Notes: generated from the sequence alone by a model not told the origin. 41,652 nt of DNA from Oscillospiraceae bacterium (GCA_015064925.1 SVRH01000003.1:1-41652), one strand, 5' to 3'; counted from the stretch's first letter, positions 2,395 to 13,356 are shown. A program made the numbers and translations.

Positions 2395-3149
2395 AAATAT
2401 TCGTTTCCGACTACGACGGCACCCTCAACCGCGGCGGCGGGGTCACCGAGCGTGACCTGAAGGCATTGGACGCCTGGCAGAAGGCAGGCAACCTCTTTGG
2501 CATCGCCTCGGGCAGAGATCTGCGGGGTCTTGTGAACGTATGGCAAAGGTGCCTGCCACTGAAGCCCGACTTCCTCATCGGCGGCAACGGCACCCAGCTG
2601 TACAGGGGACTTGAGGAGCGCGTGCTGCGCTTTTCTGCAAACGGCAAGGACGTGCCCCTGATCGTCGATCTGATCCTGCGGCGCGGCGGACGCATCGTGC
2701 ACATCACCGCCGAAGAGGGAAAGTACATCCTGTCCATGGACGGAAAGATCCCCGAAAATACAAAGGACTTCTACTTCACCCTCGACAATATCCCCGCCCC
2801 GAAGGAGGTCTACTCCCTCAACACCTACTTTGACACCAACAAGCTGGCAGAGGCGTTTTGCGCCGAATGCTGCACCTGCTTCCCCGCCTTTACCGCCTAT
2901 CAGAACACCGATTGCGGCGACATCGTTCCAAGGGGCACCGGCAAGGCGGAGGGCATTGCGGCGTACATAAAACACACGGGTCTGAAGCCCGAAATGGTCA
3001 TCACCGCGGGCGACTCGGGCAACGATCTGGGCATGCTGCGTGCTTACGTCGGCTGCACCCTACCAAATGCCGACGAGGAGCTGAAAACCGTGCTGGGAGA
3101 GGAAAACATCTATCCCGACATCGCGGCAATGCTCGAAAGATACCTGTAA
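2391..3149 (+). CDS. HAD-IIB (Cof-type) hydrolase
   Basis: Motif I SDYDGTL, motif II ASGR, motif III K in GTGKAEG, motif IV GDSGND; ATGA overlap with the LOG gene. Confidence 0.9.
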   Translation: MKIFVSDYDGTLNRGGGVTERDLKALDAWQKAGNLFGIASGRDLRGLVNVWQRCLPLKPDFLIGGNGTQLYRGLEERVLRFSANGKDVPLIVDLILRRGGRIVHITAEEGKYILSMDGKIPENTKDFYFTLDNIPAPKEVYSLNTYFDTNKLAEAFCAECCTCFPAFTAYQNTDCGDIVPRGTGKAEGIAAYIKHTGLKPEMVITAGDSGNDLGMLRAYVGCTLPNADEELKTVLGEENIYPDIAAMLERYL

Positions 3150-3165
3150 AAATTTCAACCATCCC

Positions 3166-3194
3166 TTTACAAAGCGGAATTTTTGTGCTATACT
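3166..3194 (+). promoter_or_regulatory. sigmaA promoter of tRNA-Arg
   Basis: TTTACA-17bp-TATACT with TGn extended -10, 11 nt before the tRNA 5' end. Confidence 0.7.
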
Positions 3195-3205
3195 CTTTGT
3201 GTTAT

Positions 3206-3282
3206 CTACCCGTGGCACAGCTGGATAGCGCGTCAGACTCCGACTCTGAAGGTCGAAGGTTCGAATCCTTTCGGGTAGGCCA
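3206..3282 (+). tRNA. tRNA-Arg (anticodon CCG)
   Basis: Acceptor stem CTACCCG/CGGGTAG, D loop AGCTGGATAG, anticodon arm TCAGA-CT-CCG-AC-TCTGA, T loop GGTTCGAATCC, encoded CCA end; 77 nt. Confidence 0.97.
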
Positions 3283-3283
3283 G

Positions 3284-3317
3284 AAAAAAGCCATTCGCAA
3301 AAGCGAATGGCTTTTTT
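3284..3317 (+). terminator. Intrinsic terminator after tRNA-Arg (potentially bidirectional)
   Basis: AAAAAA-GCCATTCGC-AAAA-GCGAATGGC-TTTTTT. Confidence 0.85.
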
Positions 3318-3319
3318 CA

Positions 3320-3504
3320 GTGAAATTCGCCTTCGGCGAGTGAAATATGGCTTCGCCATGTGAAATACTGTGCTAAAGCACGTGTGAAATATTTGCTACG
3401 CAAATGTGAGGAGGCGAATTTTATTTCACATTGCGACGAAGGAGCAATACTTCACAATTTCCAAAGGAAATTATTTCACATTCGGCAGGTGCCGAATATT
3501 TCAC
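3320..3504. repeat. Structured GTGAAAT/ATTTCAC box-and-hairpin element, copy 1 (candidate ncRNA or structured DNA site)
   Basis: GTGAAAT at 3320, 3340, 3360, 3384; ATTTCAC/ACTTCAC at 3423, 3449, 3473, 3498. Seven short hairpins lie between the boxes (e.g. TCGCC-TTC-GGCGA, ATGGC-TTC-GCCAT, ATTTGC-TAC-GCAAAT, AATTTCC-AAA-GGAAATT, ATTCGGCA-GG-TGCCGAAT). Confidence 0.9.
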
Positions 3505-3533
3505 TTGAAAAACTTACCGTGCTATGATATAAT
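3505..3533 (+). promoter_or_regulatory. sigmaA promoter abutting element copy 1, driving the four-helix-bundle gene
   Basis: TTGAAA-17bp-TATAAT with TGn extended -10; the -35 starts at the base right after the last ATTTCAC. Confidence 0.8.
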
Positions 3534-3556
3534 AACGGCAGAAAAGCGGTGTTACT

Positions 3557-3916
3557 ATGGCAGATTCAAAGCTTCGTGACCTATCCACAGATTTTGCGGT
3601 TAAAGTTATCAAAACGTGTGATGGCATAAAAGGGCATTATTCTCTTGTAAATCAGTTGGAGCGTTCCTCTACCTCAATTGGTGCCAATATTCACGAAGCG
3701 AATTATGCTCATAGCAAAGCCGACTTTGTTGCCAAGTTTCAAATTGCACTGAAGGAGTGCTACGAAACGGAATATTGGCTTGAATTATTCGTGAAATCCG
3801 AATTGCTGGATCGCGAGATTGCAAAAGAACTTTATAATCAGTGCGGAACGATTCGCAGAATGTTGATAGCCTCTATCAATACGGCGAAGGAGAACTCAAA
3901 TGACGGTAAAAAATGA
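3557..3916 (+). CDS. Four helix bundle protein (23S rRNA intervening-sequence protein/TIGR02436-like, Avd-related fold)
   Basis: Family signature QLERSSTSIGANIHEA-x4-SKADFVAKFQIALKECYETEYWLEL; 119 aa. Confidence 0.9.
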   Translation: MADSKLRDLSTDFAVKVIKTCDGIKGHYSLVNQLERSSTSIGANIHEANYAHSKADFVAKFQIALKECYETEYWLELFVKSELLDREIAKELYNQCGTIRRMLIASINTAKENSNDGKK

Positions 3917-4310
3917 TATAGTTTTGTGGGACAACGGAATAGATAAGTTTTGTTTATTAAAAGCACCAAACGAACAGCAATATAAATATATTGACGGTAT
4001 CCCTTGCATCACGTTTGGAATTTCTTATGAAAACACGAGTTTTAAGGGGTACGACACCTTTACTTTGTTTGACCATTTTTATTCTAACATAGTTAACGAG
4101 ATAGAAAGCACATATACTTCGCTAAACGGTTCTTTTCGCATCTATGACGTTGGTGCAGATACCGATGGGTATATTGAGGTTGTTATGACAAATGGGAAAC
4201 TATCTGTCAAAGGTCAGCTTGGCGCATCTTTTTCTTCACATTCGTTAATGTTTGAACTTGAAGCAGACCAAACTTTAGTAGGAAATCTGCTACAAGAGAT
4301 TACGTTTTGA
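3900..4310 (+). CDS. Hypothetical protein, possibly WapI-like immunity protein
   Basis: 136-aa AT-rich ORF overlapping the upstream gene by 17 nt. Acidic and beta-rich; C-terminus GKLSVKGQL...LMFELEADQTLV recalls WapI-family immunity proteins (from memory, unverified). Confidence 0.6.
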   Translation: MTVKNDIVLWDNGIDKFCLLKAPNEQQYKYIDGIPCITFGISYENTSFKGYDTFTLFDHFYSNIVNEIESTYTSLNGSFRIYDVGADTDGYIEVVMTNGKLSVKGQLGASFSSHSLMFELEADQTLVGNLLQEITF

Positions 4311-4399
4311 TTTTATGAGCGTAAGACTTTCACATTATCTACGCGCCTTTTTTGCCTTTGTACCTATGCTTACGCACCGTTTGCGCGCTTCTTCGCAAC

Positions 4400-4441
4400 A
4401 AAAAACGCACTTTTGTCTACCAAGACAATGTGTGCTTTTTT
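4400..4441 (+). terminator. Terminator-like hairpin preceding element copy 2
   Basis: AAAAAA-CGCAC-TT-TTGTCT-ACCA-AGACAA-TGTGTGC-TTTTTT; imperfect stem plus U tract, in the same position relative to the element as the 3284-3317 terminator. Confidence 0.6.
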
Positions 4442-4443
4442 CA

Positions 4444-4622
4444 ACGAAATTCGCCTTCGGCGAGTGAAATATGGCTTCGCCATGTGAAATACTGTGCTAA
4501 AGCACGTGTGAAATATTTGCTACGCAAATGTGATGGACGAATTTCATTTCACATTGCGACGAAGGAGCAATACTTTACTATGCCGATAGGCATAACTTCA
4601 CTACGGCTTGCCGCAACTTCGC
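4444..4622. repeat. Structured GTGAAAT/ATTTCAC box-and-hairpin element, copy 2
   Basis: 4446-4533 is identical to 3322-3409 (88 bp). Boxes at 4444 (ACGAAAT), 4464, 4484, 4508 and 4546, 4572, 4595, 4616 (ACTTCGC). The last two side hairpins differ in sequence from copy 1 but still pair. Confidence 0.9.
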
Positions 4623-4648
4623 TTTTAATGATTATACAAGGATACGCC

Positions 4649-4677
4649 TTGTTTTATTTGCAAAAGTGTAGTATAAT
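4649..4677 (+). promoter_or_regulatory. sigmaA promoter after element copy 2
   Basis: TTGTTT-17bp-TATAAT; the -35 overlaps the 3' arm of hairpin ACAAGG-ATACG-CCTTGT. Confidence 0.65.
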
Positions 4678-4698
4678 GGAACAAAGAAGAAAGGCGGG

Positions 4699-5070
4699 AT
4701 GAGTATGCCTCACGGATACAAAAGAGAATATAACGATGTTTTATATTTTAAGAAGGATCATTTTTGCCCCGAATGTAAAACAAAATTAGATAAAGTTCCT
4801 GTTTCAAGAGTTATTAATTCCGGCTCACCTGAAGCCAAGAATTTTGATTTCAGTATGCCCGGAGGGAATTTTGCTGTAGGTGATATTCAATTCATTTGGG
4901 ATGAATTTGAATGTCCAAACTGCCAAAAACACCTTACCGTAAATGAAATGAAAGCAATTGAGGGAATCCCATTACCTAAAAAACCAAGTAAATGGAGAAA
5001 AATACTGTTTTTGATATTTGGTATTCTTTTTTTAATTGCAGTAGCATTGATAAGAGAATATTTAAGTTGA
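4699..5070 (+). CDS. Hypothetical zinc-ribbon membrane protein
   Basis: CPEC and CPNC pairs, basic patch KKPSKWRK, then a C-terminal TM helix; AAGGCGG RBS; AT-rich. Confidence 0.8.
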   Translation: MSMPHGYKREYNDVLYFKKDHFCPECKTKLDKVPVSRVINSGSPEAKNFDFSMPGGNFAVGDIQFIWDEFECPNCQKHLTVNEMKAIEGIPLPKKPSKWRKILFLIFGILFLIAVALIREYLS

Positions 5071-5209
5071 CCTTTTGTTCACTTTTGCCTCAACTTTGAA
5101 CCTTATATCACGATGAAGGCAAAAAGCGCTTCACTTCCTGTTTTGCTTGCGCAGTACTTCACAGTTTTTAGGTTGATTAACACACAATTGAATGAAAGGA
5201 ATACACGAT

Positions 5210-5725
5210 ATGTATCACGGCATCCAAATCAGCCAAACGCGGCTGATAGCCAACAACATCATTTTCACCTGCTTGTTGCTTATAACCGTAGGTCTTGGAA
5301 TTTGGTATCTTATCTTTACCCACACAAGCGGCAATCTTAAAGATAGAAAGCGCATCAAAAGGCTGAAACAAAAAGCCAATCGTGACCCTTACGCAGAAAA
5401 GCAGCTGCAAAAATTAAAACGAAAGCAAAAATCGGTCAAAAAGACCAGTCTAAGCACCGATATACTGGTTTGGAGCTTACTTATCGTGCTTTTATCATTG
5501 AATCTATTTCTGGCAATCATCCCCGGCTGGACCGATTATATTAAAAAAGACTACGTAGTTTACGAAGGAAGCTTTGTGGTCGACCGATACACAAGAGGCA
5601 GTCATATAAATTTAGAAGACGGCACAAGGCTGACGGGCGCTCTTGATTTGGGCGAAGGCGAGCACACCGGCAGGATCGTATATTCCCGCCGCACCAAAAT
5701 TGCGCTCGGAAACGATATGAAATAG
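5210..5725 (+). CDS. Hypothetical membrane protein (2 TM helices, very basic linker)
   Basis: Start moved to ATG 5210 behind AAAGGA RBS. Two hydrophobic helices flank a K/R-rich loop, followed by a small beta-rich C-terminal domain. Confidence 0.75.
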   Translation: MYHGIQISQTRLIANNIIFTCLLLITVGLGIWYLIFTHTSGNLKDRKRIKRLKQKANRDPYAEKQLQKLKRKQKSVKKTSLSTDILVWSLLIVLLSLNLFLAIIPGWTDYIKKDYVVYEGSFVVDRYTRGSHINLEDGTRLTGALDLGEGEHTGRIVYSRRTKIALGNDMK

Positions 5726-5727
5726 TA

Positions 5728-5753
5728 AGAACCCGACGAAGCCGTCGGGTTCT
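5728..5753. terminator. Hairpin/terminator between convergent genes, right boundary of the islet
   Basis: AGAACCCGACG-AAGC-CGTCGGGTTCT followed by ATGTTTTTT. Confidence 0.75.
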
Positions 5754-5760
5754 ATGTTTT

Positions 5761-7992
5761 TTAGTCCTTGCGCTTGTTCATTTGGCGCTGCGCCATGACA
5801 AGGCCGTAATAAATGCCGTTTTGGCGCATCAGTTCGTCGTGAGTTCCCTGCTCCGCCACAGTGCCGCGATCCAGCACCACGATACGGGTGGCATTGCGCA
5901 GAGTGGACAAACGGTGCGCGATGGCGATGACCGTTCTTCCCTTGATCAGCTCCGCCAGCGCTTCCTGCACCTGCGCTTCGGTTTCGGTATCCAGTGCCGA
6001 GGTCGCCTCGTCCAGAATCAGGATCTTAGGATCGCGCAGCAGCGCTCTTGCGATCGCGATCCTCTGCCGCTCGCCGCCCGAAAGGGTGCAGCCCTTTTCT
6101 CCCACATAGGAATTGTAGCCGTCGGGCATCTTCACAATGAATTCGTGCGCTCTTGCCGTCATTGCCGCCGCAATGACCTCTTCCTTGGTGGCGTTTGGCT
6201 TGGCATAGGCAATGTTATCGTAAATGCTGCCGCTGAAGAGATAGGTCTCCTGCAGCACCGCGCCAATGCCCTTGCGCAGGCTTTCCTTGGGGATCTCCCG
6301 CACGTCTCTTCCGTCGATGCGGATGACGCCCTTATCGCTTTCATACATATGCATGATCAGATTGATCAGGGTGGTCTTGCCCACGCCCGAGCGCCCCACA
6401 AGTCCGATCATCTCGCCCGTACGAATGTCCAGATTGACGTTTCGCAGGACCTCCTTGTCCTCCTCGTAGGCAAAGGTGAGGTCGCGGATCTCGATGTTGC
6501 CCTCGATCTCCATTTCCTCGGTGTCGGTGCGGTCCTCCATCACGTCCTGATCCTCCAGAAGCTCGAGGATATTGGAAAAGGCGGTGGCGGTGCGCACCAA
6601 TCGGCGCGGCAGAGTGGTCATGTAACGAAGAGGACCGTACACCATGGTTACGTAGGCGGTGAACTGGGTCAGCTCTCCGTAGGTCATGCCCTTGCCGTCA
6701 AGGATCATTTTTCCTGCGTAAAACAGCAGCAAATACTGTCCGATGCCCATCAAAAAGCTGAGGATGGGCTGGATCTTTCCGAAAAAGACCTCGTTTCGGA
6801 TCTGAATGCGGCGCTCTGCATCGATGGCTTCATCGTAGCGCGCGATCTCCTTTTTTTCGGTGCCGTAGGTCTTGACCACCCGCATTCCCGAGAAAATATC
6901 GTGCAGCACCGTATTGGCACGGGCGTTCATCTTCCACTGACGGTGGTACATCCGACGGATGTAGCGGTGGAAGACCATGTACAGCAGCATGACAAGGGGA
7001 GCAGGCACCAGCACCAGCAGCGCCAGCTTCCAGTCGTATAAGAACAGCAAAACGGTGACCGAAGCCAAAATGAGGATCTGCTCGATCACGGTCGCCATTT
7101 CACGGGTGATGAAATCGCGGATGACCTCGGTGTCCGAATTGACTCTTTGCATCAATTCTCCCGTGGTACGGCGGCGGATGCAGCCGAGGGAGAGGCGATT
7201 GATCTTATCAAAGATCTGACCGCGCAGCTTGACGATGACTCCCTCGCCCATATGTATGGTGAGCAGCCCCCGCAGGATCCCCAACAGCTTAGAAAGCAGT
7301 CCTACCAAAAAGACGGTCAGCACCACCGACGCAAAGGCGACAAGGGCAGGTTTCTTATCCGCGCGGATGTAATCGTCCACCAGCACTCGGGAAACGTAGG
7401 GAGTGATCAGCTGCAGCAGCGAGCCTGCGATGAAGAGAAGGATCGAAAAGGCAAGCGTCAGGCGGAAGGGCTTGATGATCGACAAAATGCCGGCGAGCAG
7501 ATCCTTTTTACTGCGGCAGCGGGGACAGACCGACGCCCCGGGGGCAAGGGGTCTGTGGCATTTTGGACAAACGCCCCCCATTTTCTTATGCTCGTGAGCC
7601 TCATAGGCTTCGCCCTCGATCTGCGCACGAATGCGGGCAGCCGCATCGGCAAAGGCGCCTGCAGCACTGCGGTCAGAGGCGCACAGCGCGTGTTCCTCAC
7701 CGCTCTTGGTAACAAGACAGATCTGCACGCCTCCCGGTGTCTTTTCCATGCGGGCGCTCTTTAAAAGCACCAACGGATACTCACATCGGCTTCCCTCGTC
7801 ATAGGCAAGCAGGCGATCCTCCAGCAGGCATACCACGCCCTCTGCTCTGTCATATCCCCCCTCGTCCACCGAGCGGTTATAAAAGAAGCTGAAGAGAACC
7901 TGCTCCGTATTCAATTGTTCGTCATACATATGCGCCAGCTCTGTCGGCGTGCGCATCGGTTCTTTCTTCTTAGCGGCGTGTAACATATCCAA
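5761..7992 (-). CDS. ABC exporter, fused permease/ATPase, with N-terminal extension and CxxC zinc ribbon
   Basis: Walker A GRSGVGKT, LSGGERQR, ILILDEATS, IAHRLST; 6-TM domain; CPKC-x10-CPRC before the TMD. Confidence 0.92.
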   Translation of the reverse strand: MDMLHAAKKKEPMRTPTELAHMYDEQLNTEQVLFSFFYNRSVDEGGYDRAEGVVCLLEDRLLAYDEGSRCEYPLVLLKSARMEKTPGGVQICLVTKSGEEHALCASDRSAAGAFADAAARIRAQIEGEAYEAHEHKKMGGVCPKCHRPLAPGASVCPRCRSKKDLLAGILSIIKPFRLTLAFSILLFIAGSLLQLITPYVSRVLVDDYIRADKKPALVAFASVVLTVFLVGLLSKLLGILRGLLTIHMGEGVIVKLRGQIFDKINRLSLGCIRRRTTGELMQRVNSDTEVIRDFITREMATVIEQILILASVTVLLFLYDWKLALLVLVPAPLVMLLYMVFHRYIRRMYHRQWKMNARANTVLHDIFSGMRVVKTYGTEKKEIARYDEAIDAERRIQIRNEVFFGKIQPILSFLMGIGQYLLLFYAGKMILDGKGMTYGELTQFTAYVTMVYGPLRYMTTLPRRLVRTATAFSNILELLEDQDVMEDRTDTEEMEIEGNIEIRDLTFAYEEDKEVLRNVNLDIRTGEMIGLVGRSGVGKTTLINLIMHMYESDKGVIRIDGRDVREIPKESLRKGIGAVLQETYLFSGSIYDNIAYAKPNATKEEVIAAAMTARAHEFIVKMPDGYNSYVGEKGCTLSGGERQRIAIARALLRDPKILILDEATSALDTETEAQVQEALAELIKGRTVIAIAHRLSTLRNATRIVVLDRGTVAEQGTHDELMRQNGIYYGLVMAQRQMNKRKD

Positions 7993-7997
7993 ATCCT

Positions 7998-8513
7998 TTA
8001 AATGTACAGCTCTATTTTCTTATAGCTCTTTTTTTCCAGTGCTGTGACGTCCTCGATCTCAAAACGGTTACCGTCAATATCGGTCAAAATCAGTCTGCCA
8101 TCCGGCAAACGGAAGAGATTGCGGTACACGTCCTGTACGGTGAAGCAAAGGGGACCGATATCGGTCTTGACGTGGAAGGTGGTCCTGCCAAAGCGGTCCT
8201 TCACGTCATCCACCCGCAGGATCTTCGGCATGAAGTATAGCCGATCCAGCTCCTTTTTCAGCAGCTTGCGCTGCGCTTCGGGGAATTCGTTGATATCGGG
8301 GATCATCCCCACTTCCCGCTCGTCCTTTCCCGCCACCGAAATATAGCGGTATGGCTCTGCTGCGGGGAACGCGCGGCGCAGATAGACTCTGGAAAAATGC
8401 AGCTCCACGCTGTACTGCGGCGTGTTCTTTGCCTTCATGACCATCGCAGGGAAATCACCCTTTTGCGTGAAAACAGCGTTTCTTGGCGTGATCAATACGT
8501 TTTTTACGCTCAT
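7998..8513 (-). CDS. DUF1854-like protein
   Basis: RRAFP...YISV...EVGMI...ELDRLYFMPKI...VKTDIGP...LTDIDGNRFEI pattern; lies between two ABC exporters. Confidence 0.75.
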   Translation of the reverse strand: MSVKNVLITPRNAVFTQKGDFPAMVMKAKNTPQYSVELHFSRVYLRRAFPAAEPYRYISVAGKDEREVGMIPDINEFPEAQRKLLKKELDRLYFMPKILRVDDVKDRFGRTTFHVKTDIGPLCFTVQDVYRNLFRLPDGRLILTDIDGNRFEIEDVTALEKKSYKKIELYI

Positions 8514-8528
8514 ATCAGGTCCTTTCCG

Positions 8529-10850
8529 CTATTCCTCAATGCCGATACTGCGCATTGCGCTCATCTGCAATCCAAACAGCTTGTGGTAAATTCCTTTTTT
8601 CGAAAGCAGCTCAAGGTGGGTTCCCTCCTCGGCAATTCTGCCGTTTTCGATGACGATCAGTCGATCCACGTCCTTGAGCGTGGACAAACGGTGTGCGATC
8701 ATCAAAGTGGTACGCCCCTTCGACAGCGCTTCAATGGCGCCCTGCACCTTGCGCTCGGTCTCGGTATCCATGGATGCGGTGGCTTCGTCCAAGATCAGGA
8801 TCTTGGGATTGCGCAGGATGGCGCGTGCGATCGAAACGCGCTGACGCTCTCCGCCCGACAGTCCCACACCACCCTCGCCGATCTGTGTTTCGTAGCCCTG
8901 CGGCAAGCGGATGATAAAATCGTGCGCCCCTGCCGCTCTGGCAGCCGCCAGGATCTCGTCTCTGGAGGCAGTGGGTCTGGCATAGGCAATATTCTCGTAA
9001 ATCGATCCGAGGAACAGATAGGTCTCCTGCGAAACGATCGCCACGTTGCGTCTGAGTTCCTCGGGAGAAAGCGTAGAAATATCCACACCGTCAATGTAGA
9101 TCTTGCCTGCGTCCGGGTCATACAGACGCACCAGCAGGTTGGCAAGCGTGCTCTTGCCCGCGCCTGTTCTGCCCACAATTCCCAGCGACGTGCCCGCAGG
9201 CACACGGAAGGAAAGATCCTTTAAGACAGGGTGACCGCTGACGTAGGCAAAGCTGACGTCCTTGAACTCCACCTCCGCCCGACATCCCTTTTCAAAGGTA
9301 GCAGGCTCTTCGGGCAGAGGAAGGCTATCGGGAGAATCCATGATCTCAAACAGACGTCCCATGGCGTTCATGCTATCGGCAGCATGGCTGACCATATCCA
9401 CAAACATCCGAAGCGGCGCGTAGATCATGCCGGTATAGGCAACAAAGGTCATCAGCTCACCGTAGCTCAGCCCCTTGCCCCCGATCACCATCCATCCGCC
9501 AAAGCCCCACACAAGGATCTCTCCGATCCCCAGCAGGATACCGATCAGCGGATTGCAAACGGTGGCATATGTAGAGGCAGCACGGTCCGCCTTGGCTGCC
9601 GCATTGCTGCGACGGTCAAAGCGTGCGCTTTCCTTTTCCTCCTCCGAGAACGCCTTGACCGTACGGATACCGCCCAGCACGTCCGCCACAAGAGAGCTCA
9701 GGCTCTTGCGTCTGGCAAAGCGGCGGTTGTGCAGCACGTGCATTCCGGCAAAGAATCGGTAGATTCCGAATGCCACCAGCGGCACGGTGATAAGCGCAAG
9801 CGCCGCCAGCAGAGGATTGATATAGAACATGATGGCACCGATCGCGATCACCTGAATGAGATTGACCGTGAAATAAGGAATGCCGTCACAGAAAAACCAG
9901 TAGATGGTGTTGGCGTCCGAGGTGATCTGAGTCATCAGCGCACCCGTGCGCTTGCTTTGGAAGAAGGACATCCCCAGCCGTCCGATCTCGGCAAAGATCC
10001 GATTTTTCAGATCGTACACCAGATTGGCAGCGATGCGGGAGGAAACGATATTGTGAACAATGGTCAGCAGCGCCGACAAAAGCGCCGTTCCGAGGATCAT
10101 CAAAATGACCGTCAGCAGCTGCCCGTAAAAGCCGCCCTTCTCATCCAGCACCTGATCGTAGAAAAATCCGGCACCAATGTAGGGTGTGAGCACCGAAACA
10201 ACTCCTGATATCAGCATCAGAAGCAGCACCGACAGCATTTGCCAGCGATAGCGACGCAAGAAAACACCCATCCTGCGCATGATATTGCGACGATCCTGAC
10301 AGCGAGGACATCTTCCGTCCTCAGCATACAGCGTACCGCAGACAGAGCAGTAACGGGAGGACTGCTTGCCCTGCGAAAGGGTGGAAGGAAGGATTTTACC
10401 GTACTTTCGAATATCCTTCAGCATCGCGAGTGCTGCGTACGCTTCATCGCGGTAGGTGAAGGTATACGCCGCGATCGACACGTGGGTACCGTCATGATGC
10501 ACGCCTGCTAACAGCAGTCTGGAGGGTGACTCCTCAATGATAATGTCCACAAAGTCGGCAAGCACAAAGCATTCCACTGCCTCTTCGGTGAACACGTAGC
10601 CATAGCGCTTTTTTCTTCTCTTTTCACCGGTGAGCTTCTGGATCTTCATATAGCCCTGCACCATATAAAGATGGTCCTTGGTTACCAGATAATAACGGTT
10701 CGTACGTCCCAGCGAAAGATCGGTATCCGTGCGGAACGCCAGCAACACAGCATCGGGCAAAATGCCTCTGGAAACCATCACGCCATCCAGCTCCGGCGGA
10801 ATGCGGTCCGGTTTTCTGGGATCAAAATTCCACTGTACAAATCCTGCCAT
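8529..10850 (-). CDS. ABC exporter, fused permease/ATPase, with N-terminal extension and CxxC zinc ribbon
   Basis: GRTGAGKST, LSGGERQR, ILILDEAT, IAHRLST; CSVC-x9-CPRC; GGAGGTG RBS. Confidence 0.92.
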   Translation of the reverse strand: MAGFVQWNFDPRKPDRIPPELDGVMVSRGILPDAVLLAFRTDTDLSLGRTNRYYLVTKDHLYMVQGYMKIQKLTGEKRRKKRYGYVFTEEAVECFVLADFVDIIIEESPSRLLLAGVHHDGTHVSIAAYTFTYRDEAYAALAMLKDIRKYGKILPSTLSQGKQSSRYCSVCGTLYAEDGRCPRCQDRRNIMRRMGVFLRRYRWQMLSVLLLMLISGVVSVLTPYIGAGFFYDQVLDEKGGFYGQLLTVILMILGTALLSALLTIVHNIVSSRIAANLVYDLKNRIFAEIGRLGMSFFQSKRTGALMTQITSDANTIYWFFCDGIPYFTVNLIQVIAIGAIMFYINPLLAALALITVPLVAFGIYRFFAGMHVLHNRRFARRKSLSSLVADVLGGIRTVKAFSEEEKESARFDRRSNAAAKADRAASTYATVCNPLIGILLGIGEILVWGFGGWMVIGGKGLSYGELMTFVAYTGMIYAPLRMFVDMVSHAADSMNAMGRLFEIMDSPDSLPLPEEPATFEKGCRAEVEFKDVSFAYVSGHPVLKDLSFRVPAGTSLGIVGRTGAGKSTLANLLVRLYDPDAGKIYIDGVDISTLSPEELRRNVAIVSQETYLFLGSIYENIAYARPTASRDEILAAARAAGAHDFIIRLPQGYETQIGEGGVGLSGGERQRVSIARAILRNPKILILDEATASMDTETERKVQGAIEALSKGRTTLMIAHRLSTLKDVDRLIVIENGRIAEEGTHLELLSKKGIYHKLFGLQMSAMRSIGIEE

Positions 10851-10874
10851 TGTGTCACCTCCATTTCATCTTTC

Positions 10875-10904
10875 AGTATAACACACAAAGTAGCAATTTG
10901 TCAA
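10875..10904 (-). promoter_or_regulatory. sigmaA promoter of the ABC-DUF1854-ABC operon
   Basis: Minus strand TTGACA-18bp-TATACT with TGn. Confidence 0.65.
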
Positions 10905-10929
10905 CGATACCGCATACATTTCGCTATTT

Positions 10930-12024
10930 TTATCCCGAATTCCTTGCATCCGTCGCTGAAACCCCGCGTTTTTCCCGTACGACTCCCAACAGCACCGTCA
11001 CGGCAAGAGGCGCTAAGATCAATCCGGTAAAGCCAAAAAGGGAAAATCCGAAATACATGGATGCCAGCGCGTGAAAGGGGTGCAGTCCCAGCTTTTTACC
11101 GATGATCCTCGGTTCGATCGCCTGCCGCGATGCGGTGATCAGCGCCCAAAGCACAAGAAGTCCGATGGCACTTTTCATATCCCCCGAGAGCAGCCGTACG
11201 ATCGCCCAAGGGATCATGACCGTACCCGTTCCGAGAATGGGAAAAAAGTCAATGACGGCAATGATCGCTGCCAGCGTCAGACTATACGGGATGCGCAGCA
11301 GCGTAAATCCGAGGAACAGCTGCAAAAAGGTAAACACCAGCAAAATCAACGCTGCCTTGAGATACTGCCAAAGACAGTCTCCCGCGCGACGGCGCAAATA
11401 CTGCATCTCCTTGACGATACGATCGGGCAGCACAGCATACAGTCCCTTGAAGATCCGCTCTCGGTCGGTTGTCAAGTAATAGGAAGCAATCATCAGTACC
11501 ACCACAAAGAACAAAAGCAGCGGCAAGCATCCCAAAACCGACGAGAGGATCCCGGGAATGGCAGCCACCAGGCCGCTTGCCGCGCCAGACAATGCATCTC
11601 GCACCACCGCGCCAAAGCTCTTGCTGGCAAAATACTCCTTTGCCGCAGGGAACCATTCGCCAAGCTTATTCTGCAGCGTCCCCGCCAGCTGCGAGGGTCC
11701 TGTATCGGACGGGACCTCCTGTGCCAAAAACGAGCCTGCCTCCTCTACCAAGCGCAGTAAGGTCAGATAGGATAAAAGAAGAAGCCCGAAAATCAGCAAG
11801 AGCAGAAGCAAAACCGTGCAAAGACGGACAGGAATACGGAATTTGCGGTACAAAAACTGCACCACCGGACGGATCATGGATGAGAGCAGCAGCGCCAGCA
11901 AAAAGGGCAGCAGCGGCATCCAGAAAAAGCGGAAAAACAAATAAAAAAGCGCGCAGGCGATGGTTGCGTAAAAAACGACGACAAACACACGCTTGTACGG
12001 TTCTTTCGGTAAAAATTCTATCAT
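10930..12024 (-). CDS. ytvI: Sporulation integral membrane protein YtvI (AI-2E family)
   Basis: LLPFLLALLLS, IDFFPILGTGTVMIPWA and RQAIEPRIIGKKLGLHP motifs. Confidence 0.85.
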   Translation of the reverse strand: MIEFLPKEPYKRVFVVVFYATIACALFYLFFRFFWMPLLPFLLALLLSSMIRPVVQFLYRKFRIPVRLCTVLLLLLLIFGLLLLSYLTLLRLVEEAGSFLAQEVPSDTGPSQLAGTLQNKLGEWFPAAKEYFASKSFGAVVRDALSGAASGLVAAIPGILSSVLGCLPLLLFFVVVLMIASYYLTTDRERIFKGLYAVLPDRIVKEMQYLRRRAGDCLWQYLKAALILLVFTFLQLFLGFTLLRIPYSLTLAAIIAVIDFFPILGTGTVMIPWAIVRLLSGDMKSAIGLLVLWALITASRQAIEPRIIGKKLGLHPFHALASMYFGFSLFGFTGLILAPLAVTVLLGVVREKRGVSATDARNSG

Positions 12025-12095
12025 ACGATCCCCAAAATCAACGTTTTCTTGATTCTAGTATACAAAACGGGGATCAAAAATATACAAAGCTGAGA

Positions 12096-12121
12096 AAAAC
12101 AGCCCCCGTGGGGGCTGTTTT
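12096..12121 (-). terminator. Intrinsic terminator of sdaA
   Basis: AAAACAGCCCC...GGGGCTGTTTT inverted repeat directly after the stop codon. Confidence 0.8.
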
Positions 12122-12126
12122 GTACT

Positions 12127-13356
12127 TTATTGAGGAGGCTGGTCACCCAGCTGCTCGCGCACGTACACCACGGCAAGGCCACCCTTGGAGGTCTCGCGAT
12201 AGTCGGAGTGCAGGTCGCGTCCGGTTTCATACATGGTCTTAACCACGGTATCGAAGGAGATTCGACGGGTACCCGTCAGGAAGTTTGCCAGAGAAAGCGC
12301 GTTCATGGCGCGCATAGCAGCCACGGCGTTTCTCTCGATGCAGGGGATCTGCACCAGTCCGCAAATGGGGTCGCAGGTAAGCCCCAGATGGTGCTCCAGC
12401 GAAAGCTCTGCCGCGTACTCGATCTGGTCAAGTCCCATTTCAAACAGCTCCGCCAGTGCTGCTGCCGCCATGGCACAGGCTGTACCGACCTCTGCCTGAC
12501 AGCCGCATTCCGCGCCCGACACCGAAGCGTTGGTCTTGACCACGTTGCCAATGACACCCGCCACCGCCAGCGCCTTGATCATCTGCTCGTCCGTGAAGCC
12601 CTTGTCCTCCTGCATATATTTCAGCACGGAGGGAAGCACGCCGCAGGAGCCGCAGGTGGGGGCGGTCACGATGGTCTTACAGTCGGCATTCTGCTCGCTT
12701 GCCGCAAAGGCGTAAGCGCAGATGATACGGTTTTCTCTTGTCTGAGGGCGCTCGTCAATGTGACGGCGGTTATACAGACGTTGCGCCACCCTTGCCAGCT
12801 TCAATTCACCCGGCAGAATTCCCGTGCGGACAAGGCCTTCGTCGATCTCGTCCTTCATGGTCTGCCATACCGTGTATAGGAAGTCGCGGATCTCGGGGTC
12901 TTCTCTTTCAAACACGTATTCCGAAATACGCATCTTGTTTGCCTTACAATAGTCGGCAATTTCTTTGAAATTCGTTTCTTTATACACCTCCGGTGCATCC
13001 ACACCGGGATCGCCCAGCACGCGGATGTCGCCGCCGCCGATGCTCATAATGCGCTCGGTGGCATACACCTCACCGTTTTTCAGCGCAAAGAAGTCCATGG
13101 TGTTGGCGTGGGGCAGCCCCTCCTCGCGGGGATCACCAAAGATCACCTCGATCGGATGGGGAGCAAAGGTTTCAAGGATCGCAGCGTCGGTGCAGTGACC
13201 CTTACCGGTGCTGGAAAGCGATCCGTACAGCACTGCACGGTAGGCATCCGCATCCGGATACTTTTTCAAAAAGAGTTTGCTTGCCTTTTCAGGTCCCATT
13301 GTATGGGAGCTGGAAGGCCCTTTCCCGATCTTATAAAGCTCTCGTAATGATTTCAT
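12127..13356 (-). CDS. sdaA: L-serine ammonia-lyase, Fe-S dependent, single chain
   Basis: IGKGPSSSHTMGP, TAPTCGSCGVLP, SGAECGCQAEVG, HHLGLTCDP and PCIERNA motifs. Confidence 0.95.
   Translation of the reverse strand: MKSLRELYKIGKGPSSSHTMGPEKASKLFLKKYPDADAYRAVLYGSLSSTGKGHCTDAAILETFAPHPIEVIFGDPREEGLPHANTMDFFALKNGEVYATERIMSIGGGDIRVLGDPGVDAPEVYKETNFKEIADYCKANKMRISEYVFEREDPEIRDFLYTVWQTMKDEIDEGLVRTGILPGELKLARVAQRLYNRRHIDERPQTRENRIICAYAFAASEQNADCKTIVTAPTCGSCGVLPSVLKYMQEDKGFTDEQMIKALAVAGVIGNVVKTNASVSGAECGCQAEVGTACAMAAAALAELFEMGLDQIEYAAELSLEHHLGLTCDPICGLVQIPCIERNAVAAMRAMNALSLANFLTGTRRISFDTVVKTMYETGRDLHSDYRETSKGGLAVVYVREQLGDQPPQ

Follow-up and report, generated by a model that had tools for sequence, protein, structure and literature searches.

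Directly behind tRNA-Arg(CCG) in the genome of an Oscillospiraceae bacterium (GCA_015064925.1), we found an islet of repeated expression cassettes, each headed by a terminator, a structured element, and an outward-pointing promoter. The islet occupies positions 3284 to 5753 of the 41,652-nt stretch that was analyzed (SVRH01000003.1:1-41652, referred to here as the window), which belongs to a 1.77-Mb assembly that is 88% complete (the own genome). Each element is an inverted pair of halves of the Gut-1 motif (RF01706), and a gene of the PF05635 family is the signature of the element family and its usual first gene. The element was already known as a motif; its full anatomy and genomic context are new here. 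With confidence that is evenly balanced, we infer that homologous or micro-homology recombination between dispersed modules adds, copies, and shuffles the cassettes, with no linked integrase. The original prediction, made from the sequence of the window alone, had proposed insulated, repeated expression units at the 3' end of a tRNA gene, and our analysis supports this.

Architecture of the islet

The predicted order of terminator, CA dinucleotide, element, promoter, and open reading frame (ORF) is present twice, at the coordinates given in Table 1. Two ORFs per unit had been expected, which is the case in the first unit and not in the second: because a decayed right-half remnant precedes ORF 5192-5725, the islet is better read as two full units plus one decayed unit, three in all. 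As had also been noted, every islet ORF lies on the plus strand behind the tRNA gene and is AT-richer than the flanking genes (GC content of 0.33 to 0.43 for the ORFs and 0.35 to 0.44 for the islet versus 0.53 to 0.61 for the flanks). Elements 1 and 2 are alike over 100 nt (98%) and over 53 nt (87%), and GTGAAATA occurs 10 times in the window versus 1.2 times expected, a count reached by none of 100 shuffles.

The promoters and terminators are themselves parts of dispersed sets. The -35 hexamer of promoter 1 abuts the final word of element 1, and this promoter and the ribosome site GAAAGGCGGTG also occur in copies on three other own-genome contigs (C119, C83, and C91). Promoter 2 lies within a second conserved promoter module, which has a hairpin (caagg..ccttg) and recurs on C43, C91, and C120; its -35 hexamer has 3 of 6 consensus positions, so that it was not listed by our consensus scan for promoters and terminators, which covered 3100-5900. 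Terminator 2 is homologous to the terminator behind tRNA-Val on C105, and terminator 1 is predicted from its palindrome and should be active in both directions. The 136-aa cargo ORF starts inside the 3' end of the PF05635 gene, whose AAGGAGAA serves as its ribosome site. The 177-aa ORF has a weak two-transmembrane (2TM) effector match in PADLOC (E 0.007), and the terminator that closes the islet is common to it and to a convergent ATP-binding cassette (ABC) exporter gene.

Table 1. Features of the cassette islet, in window coordinates
Feature	Position	Strand	Evidence
tRNA-Arg(CCG), islet anchor, CCA end encoded	3206-3282	+	ARAGORN; Rfam tRNA 58 bits
Terminator 1, perfect A6-hairpin-T6 palindrome	3283-3318	.	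16-nt arms 100% complementary; -25.6 kcal/mol
Structured element 1, 189 nt, after CA	3318-3506	.	Gut-1 halves, fold z-scores, P1 covariation
Left half of element 1	3318-3395	+	Gut-1
Right half of element 1	3418-3506	-	Gut-1
Closing stem P1 of element 1	3325-3333 with 3412-3420		AAATTCGCC pairs with GGCGAATTT
Promoter 1, TTGAAA-17-TATAAT	3505-3533	+	11/12 consensus positions
PF05635 four-helix-bundle gene, 119 aa	3557-3916	+	Pfam E 1.3e-25
136-aa cargo ORF, no family	3900-4310	+	No Pfam or PADLOC match
Conserved ~90-nt tail, right end of unit 1	4311-4402	+	Copies C11:3106-3193 (91%), C119:700-752 (85%)
Terminator 2, imperfect A6-hairpin-T6	4400-4443	.	-13.6 kcal/mol
Structured element 2, after CA	4442 to ~4620	.	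Rfam 62.7 bits (+), 33.4 bits (-)
Promoter 2, TTGTTT-17-TATAAT	4649-4677	+	Read directly from sequence
123-aa cargo ORF, double zinc ribbon and C-terminal membrane helix	4699-5070	+	Weak Pfam zinc-ribbon matches only
Decayed third-element remnant (right half), two CTTCAC words and A-run	~5110-5170	.	5151-5167, 88% to 3444-3460; contigs of two runs diverge at 5109
177-aa cargo ORF (or from ATG at 5210), two-helix membrane protein	5192-5725	+	
Bidirectional terminator closing the islet	5728-5753	.	11-pair stem on both strands; -20 kcal/mol

Gut-1 identity and folding of the element

Both left halves matched RF01706 over the full model (1-77), with 63.0 bits for 3318-3395 and 62.7 bits for 4442-4519, both on the plus strand, against a gathering cut-off of 50. 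The minus-strand halves scored below that cut-off (48.2 bits in element 1 and 33.4 bits in element 2). The original prediction had the structure of the element right, while its Gut-1 identity and its PF05635 partner went unrecognized. According to the accessible part of the 2010 report (Weinberg et al., PMC2864571), Gut-1 is confined to gut metagenome organisms, was found in "human gut only," and is a likely noncoding RNA, with no function given there. It has since served as an example in a 2026 benchmarking paper, and we found no function or cassette context for it in the literature searched, the 2010 supplement lying outside the scope of that search.

The left halves resemble the Rfam model end to end, with its UGAAAU words and three hairpins. 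In Rfam, Gut-1 is a stand-alone small RNA of 77 nt; here it is half of an inverted doublet of ~190 nt with an extra closing stem, and the doublet heads gene cassettes behind tRNA genes, with a terminator on one side and an outward promoter on the other. The full element consists of four GTGAAAT words, each followed by a short hairpin, and then four ATTTCAC words with hairpins (in element 1, the four right-half copies read (A/C)TTTCAC). A P1 stem of 10 bp joins the 5' end of the element to its center and closes the left half. In the predicted single-strand fold, words would pair across the halves and the hairpins would protrude, which is the "fishbone" of the original prediction. The ends of the element read CAGTGAAAT...ATTTCACTTG, and its start directly follows a T-run and reads C/G-A-A/G in all 47 listed left halves.

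Pairing is conserved well beyond what composition would give. Fold z-scores ranged from -5.0 to -6.7, and none of 200 shuffles folded as well. Across 38 aligned left halves from different genomes, 94.6% of cells pair versus 67.6% after shuffling (0/500 as high), and the value falls to 32 to 51% when the 3' partners are slid by 1 to 3 columns. In the same alignment, P1 reaches 98.1% pairing, with changes on both sides in 9 of 11 pairs; a P1 of at least 8 bp was present in 49/53 oriented elements, in 36 distinct sequences. Hairpins are formed by 176 of 223 distinct inter-word spacers. The word itself differs by element type (GTGAAAT, GTGAAGT, GTGATGT/ATGATGT, GTGATAT/ATGATAT, and others), and in detected elements the right-half word is the reverse complement of the left-half word, a match that our detector demands by design. 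Element 2 was missed by the detector because it is a left/right chimera. Judged from the pairing comparisons, a folded single strand, be it DNA or RNA, is under selection. A comparison of G.T with A.C pairs, aimed at the strand that folds, gave 979 Watson-Crick, 7 G.T, and 3 A.C pairs in the 176 hairpins, as counted by a stem finder that is biased against mismatches; it was set aside, the terminator control having equally low counts (391, 7, and 3, plus 6 other mismatches).

Such conservation, together with the Rfam gathering score, the earlier rating of Gut-1 as likely noncoding RNA in the accessible part of the 2010 report, and the strong covariation, would also fit a structured noncoding RNA or a passive insulator placed after highly expressed genes. 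In that case the element would have no role in capture, and cargo would be present because regions downstream of tRNA genes are hotspots. The many copies and tandem arrays that carry no cargo, and the copies behind ribosomal-protein operons (L095), agree with this explanation, which we nevertheless judge improbable. The element lies between a bidirectional terminator and an outward-pointing promoter, and our consensus scan found no minus-strand promoter in 3100-5900, so that transcription of the element is not predicted. Conservation of the module extends through the promoter and ribosome site as far as the start codon, a cargo unit has moved between genera with parts of the module, and the adjacency of the PF05635 gene is far too regular for chance. 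By consensus, every promoter in 3100-5900 is either directed away from the element or has its transcription halted at terminator 1. The element is therefore expected to be transcriptionally silent, given the bidirectional terminator on one side, the sole nearby promoter pointing outward, and the lack of a minus-strand promoter in the scanned region.

Distribution and tRNA anchoring

The own genome has 17 Gut-1 matches, corresponding to ~11 elements, five of which lie near contig ends (C83, C119, C105, C55, and C43). Among the 121 family genomes sampled for both Gut-1 and PF05635, 68 have a Gut-1 match, with a maximum of 35 matches per genome. A pattern scan of named genomes yielded 35/120 loci that passed a stricter detector; true elements came from assemblies labelled Clostridia, Eubacteriales, Oscillospiraceae, Acutalibacteraceae, Ruminococcaceae, Faecousia, and Christensenellaceae, the hosts being ruminant, horse, and human guts. 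A terminator is present on exactly one side of 53/66 unique elements, on both sides of 3, and on neither side of 10.

The expectation that cassettes gather at tRNA 3' ends holds true of the element family. A tRNA 3' end lies within 110 nt of 34/89 elements (4/9 in the own genome, 14/37 Gut-1-match loci, and 16/43 pattern loci), more than 15 anticodons adjoin elements, and 5 of the 24 tRNA cluster ends of the own genome lead directly into an element. Many element copies are without cargo, and cargo-less tandem arrays exist, such as four elements behind tRNA-Trp.

The own genome contains a sixth case, on C113, where an element lies behind a displaced copy of the 3' end of tRNA-Met. There (C113:9943-10210), a second copy of the terminal 28 nt of tRNA-Met(CAT), with 1 nt inserted, is found 150 nt downstream, directly before a terminator, a GTGAAG-type element, and a second PF05635 gene. 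This att-like repeat suggests a later integration at the same tRNA. Two cargo-less arrays in other genomes also contain tRNA-like sequence. In one (L083, G114:C49, 8255-9530), elements of the GTGAAAT and TGATAT types alternate and are separated by fragments resembling a tRNA 3' half (gagttcgagt...gcccatagcca); in the other (L086, G018:C28, 8700-9640), a 410-bp unit is bounded by copies of the 3' end of tRNA-Gly.

We also searched mobile and viral sequences. The plasmid search gave no match to 3283-4402. In viral contigs, 8/117 pattern loci passed the detector; of three inspected, two look genuine (L257 and L310), the latter being host flank. The element in L257 (5002-5177), a phage-like contig, has no terminator or tRNA and lies next to an apparent ORF for a large terminase subunit, a single case. 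Two "UNVERIFIED: Bacteriophage sp." records from human faeces (L383, MT835590.1; L384, MT835815.1) match the PF05635 gene, and phage carriage was rejected as they look like bacterial chromosome fragments. L384 has the order tRNA-Arg(ACG), terminator, element, and PF05635 gene, and L383 has the same order behind an ORF, without a tRNA.

The PF05635 partner gene and its cargo

ORF 3557-3916 matched PF05635 (23S_rRNA_IVP) with 90.1 bits against a 33.8-bit cut-off, and its closest solved structure is an "uncharacterized protein" (PDB 2rld, E 6.8e-23). The portions of the literature available describe the family as uncharacterized, related to Avd of diversity-generating retroelements, and encoded in rRNA insertions (bioRxiv 10.1101/2024.02.27.582315; PMC10053308).

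In the own genome, each of the two PF05635 genes comes first behind its element, which is of the GTGAAAT type in one case and of the GTGAAG type in the other. Across the sampled genomes, 65/121 have the gene; 54 have both gene and Gut-1, 11 PF05635 only, 14 Gut-1 only, and 42 neither, counts in which kinship is ignored. Of 30 PF05635 loci fetched, 29 were matched by the query, and in 18 of these top 29 loci a strict element lies 21 to 126 nt upstream, with 3 more too near a contig edge to judge. In all six cases of an element flanked by both a tRNA and a PF05635 gene, the latter lies on the side away from the tRNA. In a tree of 37 PF05635 proteins, the word classes of the elements need 8 changes (minimum, 5) versus 22.6 in shuffles, a value that 0/200 shuffles reached. 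Of the 7 proteins in a basal clade, 6 lack a detectable upstream element and 1 has an unrelated repeat only. Either co-adaptation or simple linkage may explain why protein clade and word type match.

The 3' end of the PF05635 gene is itself a site of variation. In 12/40 PF05635 genes, a same-strand ORF starts within 28 nt of the stop codon, with an ATGA overlap in 7 of the 12. The 12 coupled downstream proteins belong to as many unrelated families, so that the gene's 3' terminus, together with its AAGGAGAA, acts as a docking point for varied cargo; the 136-aa ORF is one case.

Cargo is diverse. Proteins of 136, 142, 138, 233, and 169 aa belong to no family, and other cargo includes an ADP-ribosylglycohydrolase, a DUF4279 protein, a nucleotidyltransferase, a radical S-adenosylmethionine (SAM) enzyme, and membrane proteins. 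PADLOC gave no convincing defense-system match among 10 cargo proteins. The 123-aa zinc-ribbon protein has homologs with 35 to 86% identity in 9 other genomes of the 121 (the 86% covers only a 36-aa contig-end fragment). Some are in element islets, as in one behind tRNA-Gln; elsewhere they lie beside rearrangement hotspot (RHS) toxin ends and in small immunity-like gene arrays, which hints that the 123-aa protein may be an immunity or accessory factor of polymorphic toxin systems. At two such loci, L371 (G116:C10, 196-2367) and L373 (G013:C52), zinc-ribbon tandem paralogs lie by an RHS-type toxin C-terminal ORF and within arrays of immunity-like ORFs.

Variable content, mosaicism, and transfer between genera

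The tRNA-Arg(CCG) junction was compared in nine relatives and varies in content. Four have no element there: sister species G001, in which another terminator follows the tRNA, and three genomes without Gut-1 (G020, G008, and G016). Two have an element only, namely, G015, with one element without cargo, and metagenome contig L081, in which a terminator and left half alone are followed by core genes. Two (G009 and G068, the latter at L068) have an element and a PF05635 gene, and one (G055) has at least 3 units with other cargo. Contig L081 encodes a haloacid dehalogenase (HAD) protein 83% identical to that of the window; the HAD protein search returned 2 loci in metagenome contigs and none in genome contigs. 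Relative to both G001 and L081, the AI-2E transporter/ABC exporter block (5760-12130) is inverted with respect to the tRNA. The minus strand carries all of its genes (10930-12024, 8529-10850, 7998-8513, and 5761-7992). A breakpoint is located at the islet's far end, and the other end of the block (12024-12127) holds only a promoter and a terminator.

Within the own genome, the parts occur in different combinations from copy to copy, including terminator type, left half, right half, promoter type, the GAAAGGCGGTG ribosome site, and the 90-nt tail. Element 2 is chimeric: its left half, with GTGAAAT words, is 98% identical to that of element 1, and its right half has CTTCAC words like those on C120 and C113. 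A truncated second copy of the 136-aa cargo and its tail is part of another own-genome array, on C11.

Cargo has also been exchanged beyond the genus. Window positions 3801-4402, which span the 3' end of the PF05635 gene, the following ORF, and the tail, have 96.7% nucleotide identity over 602 nt in G111, a member of another genus, and the 136-aa cargo has 98% amino-acid identity. The G111 copy lies behind tRNA-Leu(GAG), a terminator, and a left half, and the homology stops exactly at the tail end, 4402. A 5-kb core block is 68% identical in the sister species, and in G111 only 231 nt of it match, at 67%. With the unit 96.7% identical and the core at ~67% in G111, this is a recent horizontal transfer of the unit between genera, to a different tRNA. 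In G111, identical full-length tRNA-Leu(GAG) genes flank the transferred unit and a helix-turn-helix (HTH) gene (L367, G111:C42, 1177-3194). Campbell-type integration, considered as the source of this duplication, was dropped because a separate promoter (TTGACA-17-TATAAT) precedes the second tRNA copy, which could thus be an ordinary paralog.

Breakpoints, which the original prediction had proposed to map relative to the element, fall at no fewer than five places, all at module boundaries: 3282/3283, 3896, 4428, and 5109 in contigs of public sequencing runs and 4402 in G111. Cargo is swapped ORF-exactly. For strain-level change we examined the public contigs of 4 of 24 listed runs (X1, X7, X9, and X10, all animal gut), none of which bridged the islet, as contigs broke at every repeat. 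Low cover of 3840-4307 in X7 and X10 was not taken as evidence of absence. No circular excision junction, for which the original prediction had proposed a search, was found in the contigs of these runs. A joint from 5109 to 3277, seen in two runs, was rejected as a circle given 7 extra letters, sides of 33 and 42 nt, and a depth above that of the flanks; it is another genomic arrangement.

Recombinases and transposases

As had been noted, no integrase or transposase is visible at the islet: the window's contig had no match to tyrosine recombinases, serine recombinases, Y1 transposases, or reverse transcriptases in our own-genome searches. Elsewhere the own genome encodes 2 tyrosine recombinases (PF00589, on C115 and C94), 2 serine recombinases (on C83), and 1 IS200 TnpA, and there were 0 matches to reverse transcriptase PF00078 in this 88% complete assembly. 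The noted lack of a duplicated tRNA 3' end was also confirmed, in that the 38-nt 3' end of tRNA-Arg has no second copy in 3283-5800 by local alignment (best scores, 14 and 19; shuffle mean, 16.6, and maximum, 24). Among 16 fetched array regions, one (L089) has a recombinase-like ORF beside the array, according to our own ORF reading and not a family search.

The serine recombinases lie in a 14-kb low-GC island behind tRNA-Ser(GCU) (C83:1-14250) that ends in a terminator and element at the contig start. By ORF reading, the island encodes two large serine recombinases, a DNA methyltransferase, a primase-like gene, and a radical-SAM/TcmP-like pair. The single IS200-type Y1 transposase (PF01797, 11962-12318, within C44:11800-12499) is inserted behind a terminator and has its own end hairpins; 100 nt beyond it, the contig stops. 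The hairpin at its right end (TGAAAT, then ccacccgc..gcgggtgg) is similar to the first one of some elements.

These loci bear on two further explanations. In the first, modules like a cis-mobilizable element (CIME) or an integron would be inserted at a tRNA end or T-run by a tyrosine or serine recombinase encoded elsewhere, with the element as the site. We consider this rather doubtful. It would account for the tRNA 3'-end direct repeats that bound the L086 units and the tRNA-like fragments between L083 elements, for the 28-nt tRNA-Met 3' end before the element on C113, for element starts right after a T-run in 47/47 listed left halves, and for the end of the G111 homology exactly at the tail end. 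The strong fold constraint would suit a structure-specific enzyme, and on C83 the tRNA-Ser gene is separated from an element by an island that encodes two serine recombinases. What it explains poorly is the islet itself, which has no tRNA 3' repeat, the breakpoints at five or more places, and the mosaic elements; moreover, our ORF reading, not a family search, placed a recombinase-like ORF beside only 1/16 arrays, and the own genome has only 2 tyrosine recombinases.

The second explanation, to which we give a slim chance, is a selfish repeat similar to a miniature inverted-repeat transposable element (MITE) or REPIN, a doublet of repetitive extragenic palindromic (REP) sequences, that inserts itself next to terminators with the help of a single-copy transposase acting in trans, such as a Y1/HUH enzyme recognizing DNA hairpins, with cargo as passengers. 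The inverted-doublet build, the multiple copies with five elements near contig ends, the placement at T-runs, and the likeness of the lone Y1 transposase's right-end hairpin to the first hairpin of some elements are in keeping with it, and tandem arrays fit repeated insertion behind the element's own terminator. Yet this transposase, a typical IS200 one, has matched end hairpins of its own, and the assembled DNA around it shows no flanking elements. No target-site duplication was seen by eye in the copies inspected, with no systematic test made, and mosaic submodules and cargo exchange would be left unexplained.

Comparison with known systems

Integrons and clusters of attC sites lacking integron-integrases (CALINs) consist of small co-oriented genes of foreign composition separated by a structured imperfect palindrome that is conserved in fold and not in sequence. 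The islet resembles them as an array of small, co-oriented, foreign genes with a conserved fold and a content that varies between relatives. It differs in having no IntI, in a palindrome that heads the cassette together with a terminator and promoter, in many tRNA anchors instead of attI, and in its host phylum, Bacillota. In the own genome PF00589 is found only on C115 and C94, with no IntI-type gene on the window's contig; each unit has a promoter of its own, and its ORFs follow the element. The attC-like role that the original prediction had assigned to the element was not supported, given that the element heads the cassette, each cassette has its own promoter, no integrase is nearby, and no strand-specific features were seen.

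The rAID-1 clusters of gut Bacteroidales, as far as described in the available part of the preprint (bioRxiv 10.1101/471110), are similar in that some cargo of the islet family is of the immunity type, with zinc-ribbon homologs beside RHS toxin ends. According to the same part, rAID-1 has a conserved XerD-family recombinase at its head, whereas the islet starts at a tRNA and its first ORF is PF05635; the phylum and the repeat also differ, and no tRNA anchor or PF05635 gene is described there. By analogy, the system may work like an integron or rAID-1, yet it departs from their defining features because it has no integrase or XerD gene, its cassettes are not promoterless, and a structured site heads each of them.

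In proteobacteria, REP sequences and bacterial interspersed mosaic elements (BIMEs), as well as REPINs with their REP-associated tyrosine transposases (RAYTs), form multi-copy palindromic clusters of alternating orientation and inverted doublets behind operon-end terminators. In contrast, no RAYT gene with flanking repeats was found, the present units have a far more elaborate build that includes a promoter, and the element is tied to tRNA genes, cargo, and the PF05635 gene.

The intervening sequences of 23S and 16S rRNA genes share with the islet a PF05635 gene beside a long inverted-repeat structure in or next to a stable-RNA gene and a sporadic occurrence, to judge from the accessible portions of two sources (bioRxiv 10.1101/2024.02.27.582315; PMC10053308). 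As those portions describe them, intervening sequences have a simple extended stem; here there is an array of words and hairpins, and the PF05635 gene lies outside the RNA gene, behind a terminator, with its own promoter. No far-border repeat of the tRNA-Arg 3' end, as in a tRNA-integrating island or CIME, was found at the islet, although such repeats occur at other loci of the family, and no reverse transcriptase (PF00078, own genome) lies beside the Avd-like gene, as in a diversity-generating retroelement. A literature search on tRNA-downstream cassette systems returned integron work only, with no description of this architecture.

A model for cassette gain and its weighing

A junction module of ~300 bp, made up of a bidirectional terminator, the ~190-nt element, an outward sigma-70 promoter, and a ribosome site, heads each cassette and is followed by variable low-GC ORFs and, in some units, the ~90-nt tail. 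The module represents a dispersed repeat family of gut Oscillospirales that typically sits directly behind tRNA genes. Its ancestral passenger would be the PF05635 (Avd-like) gene, at whose 3' end further unrelated ORFs dock. In the mechanism that we propose, conserved modules, words recurring every 20 to 27 nt, and near-identical tRNA genes would provide the substrates for recombination, and the nearly invariant tRNA genes might act as a portable anchor between genera. The module would then express any captured ORF and shield neighboring genes, and the PF05635 protein possibly binds the element.

Several points weigh against recombination between dispersed modules as the whole explanation. 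Pure homologous recombination leaves the strong conservation of the fold unexplained, and some process must read the folded element. The copies of tRNA 3' ends at unit borders elsewhere (L086 in G018, L083 in G114, and C113 in the own genome) are a signature of a site-specific integrase, and the exact junctions (the ATGA overlap in 7/12 cases and the tail end) could point to a precise enzyme. Such an enzyme may be unassembled in a genome that is 88% complete. The match between PF05635 protein and word type may be plain linkage, the gene lying ~50 nt from the element, and the co-occurrence counts ignore relatedness among genomes. Finally, no strain-level gain or loss was seen in the public contigs, which are too fragmented.

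Implications

It is a tentative possibility that the element and the PF05635 gene together form a new gene-capture platform or selfish element of gut Clostridia, a kind of integron without an integrase that homes to stable-RNA 3' ends and in which the PF05635 protein would be a specificity factor reading 7-nt words on folded DNA. If so, the element would spread between genera and give captured ORFs a terminator, a promoter, and a ribosome site, the presence of PF05635 genes in rRNA intervening sequences would be explained, and Gut-1 would gain a function at the DNA level.

For Gut-1, an orphan since 2010, these results supply the genomic setting, the anatomy at full length, and a role that can be tested. 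Outside diversity-generating retroelements, no function is known for PF05635 proteins, and their tight link to a folded repeat whose word type varies with the protein is open to direct study of binding. Should the arrays be gene-capture sites, they would constitute a route of horizontal gene flow, without a linked recombinase, in abundant uncultured Oscillospirales of the gut and rumen, with a load of immunity-like genes, an ADP-ribosylglycohydrolase, a nucleotidyltransferase, and membrane proteins. For these organisms, the module is a natural, compact, insulated expression cassette comprising terminator, spacer, promoter, and ribosome site.

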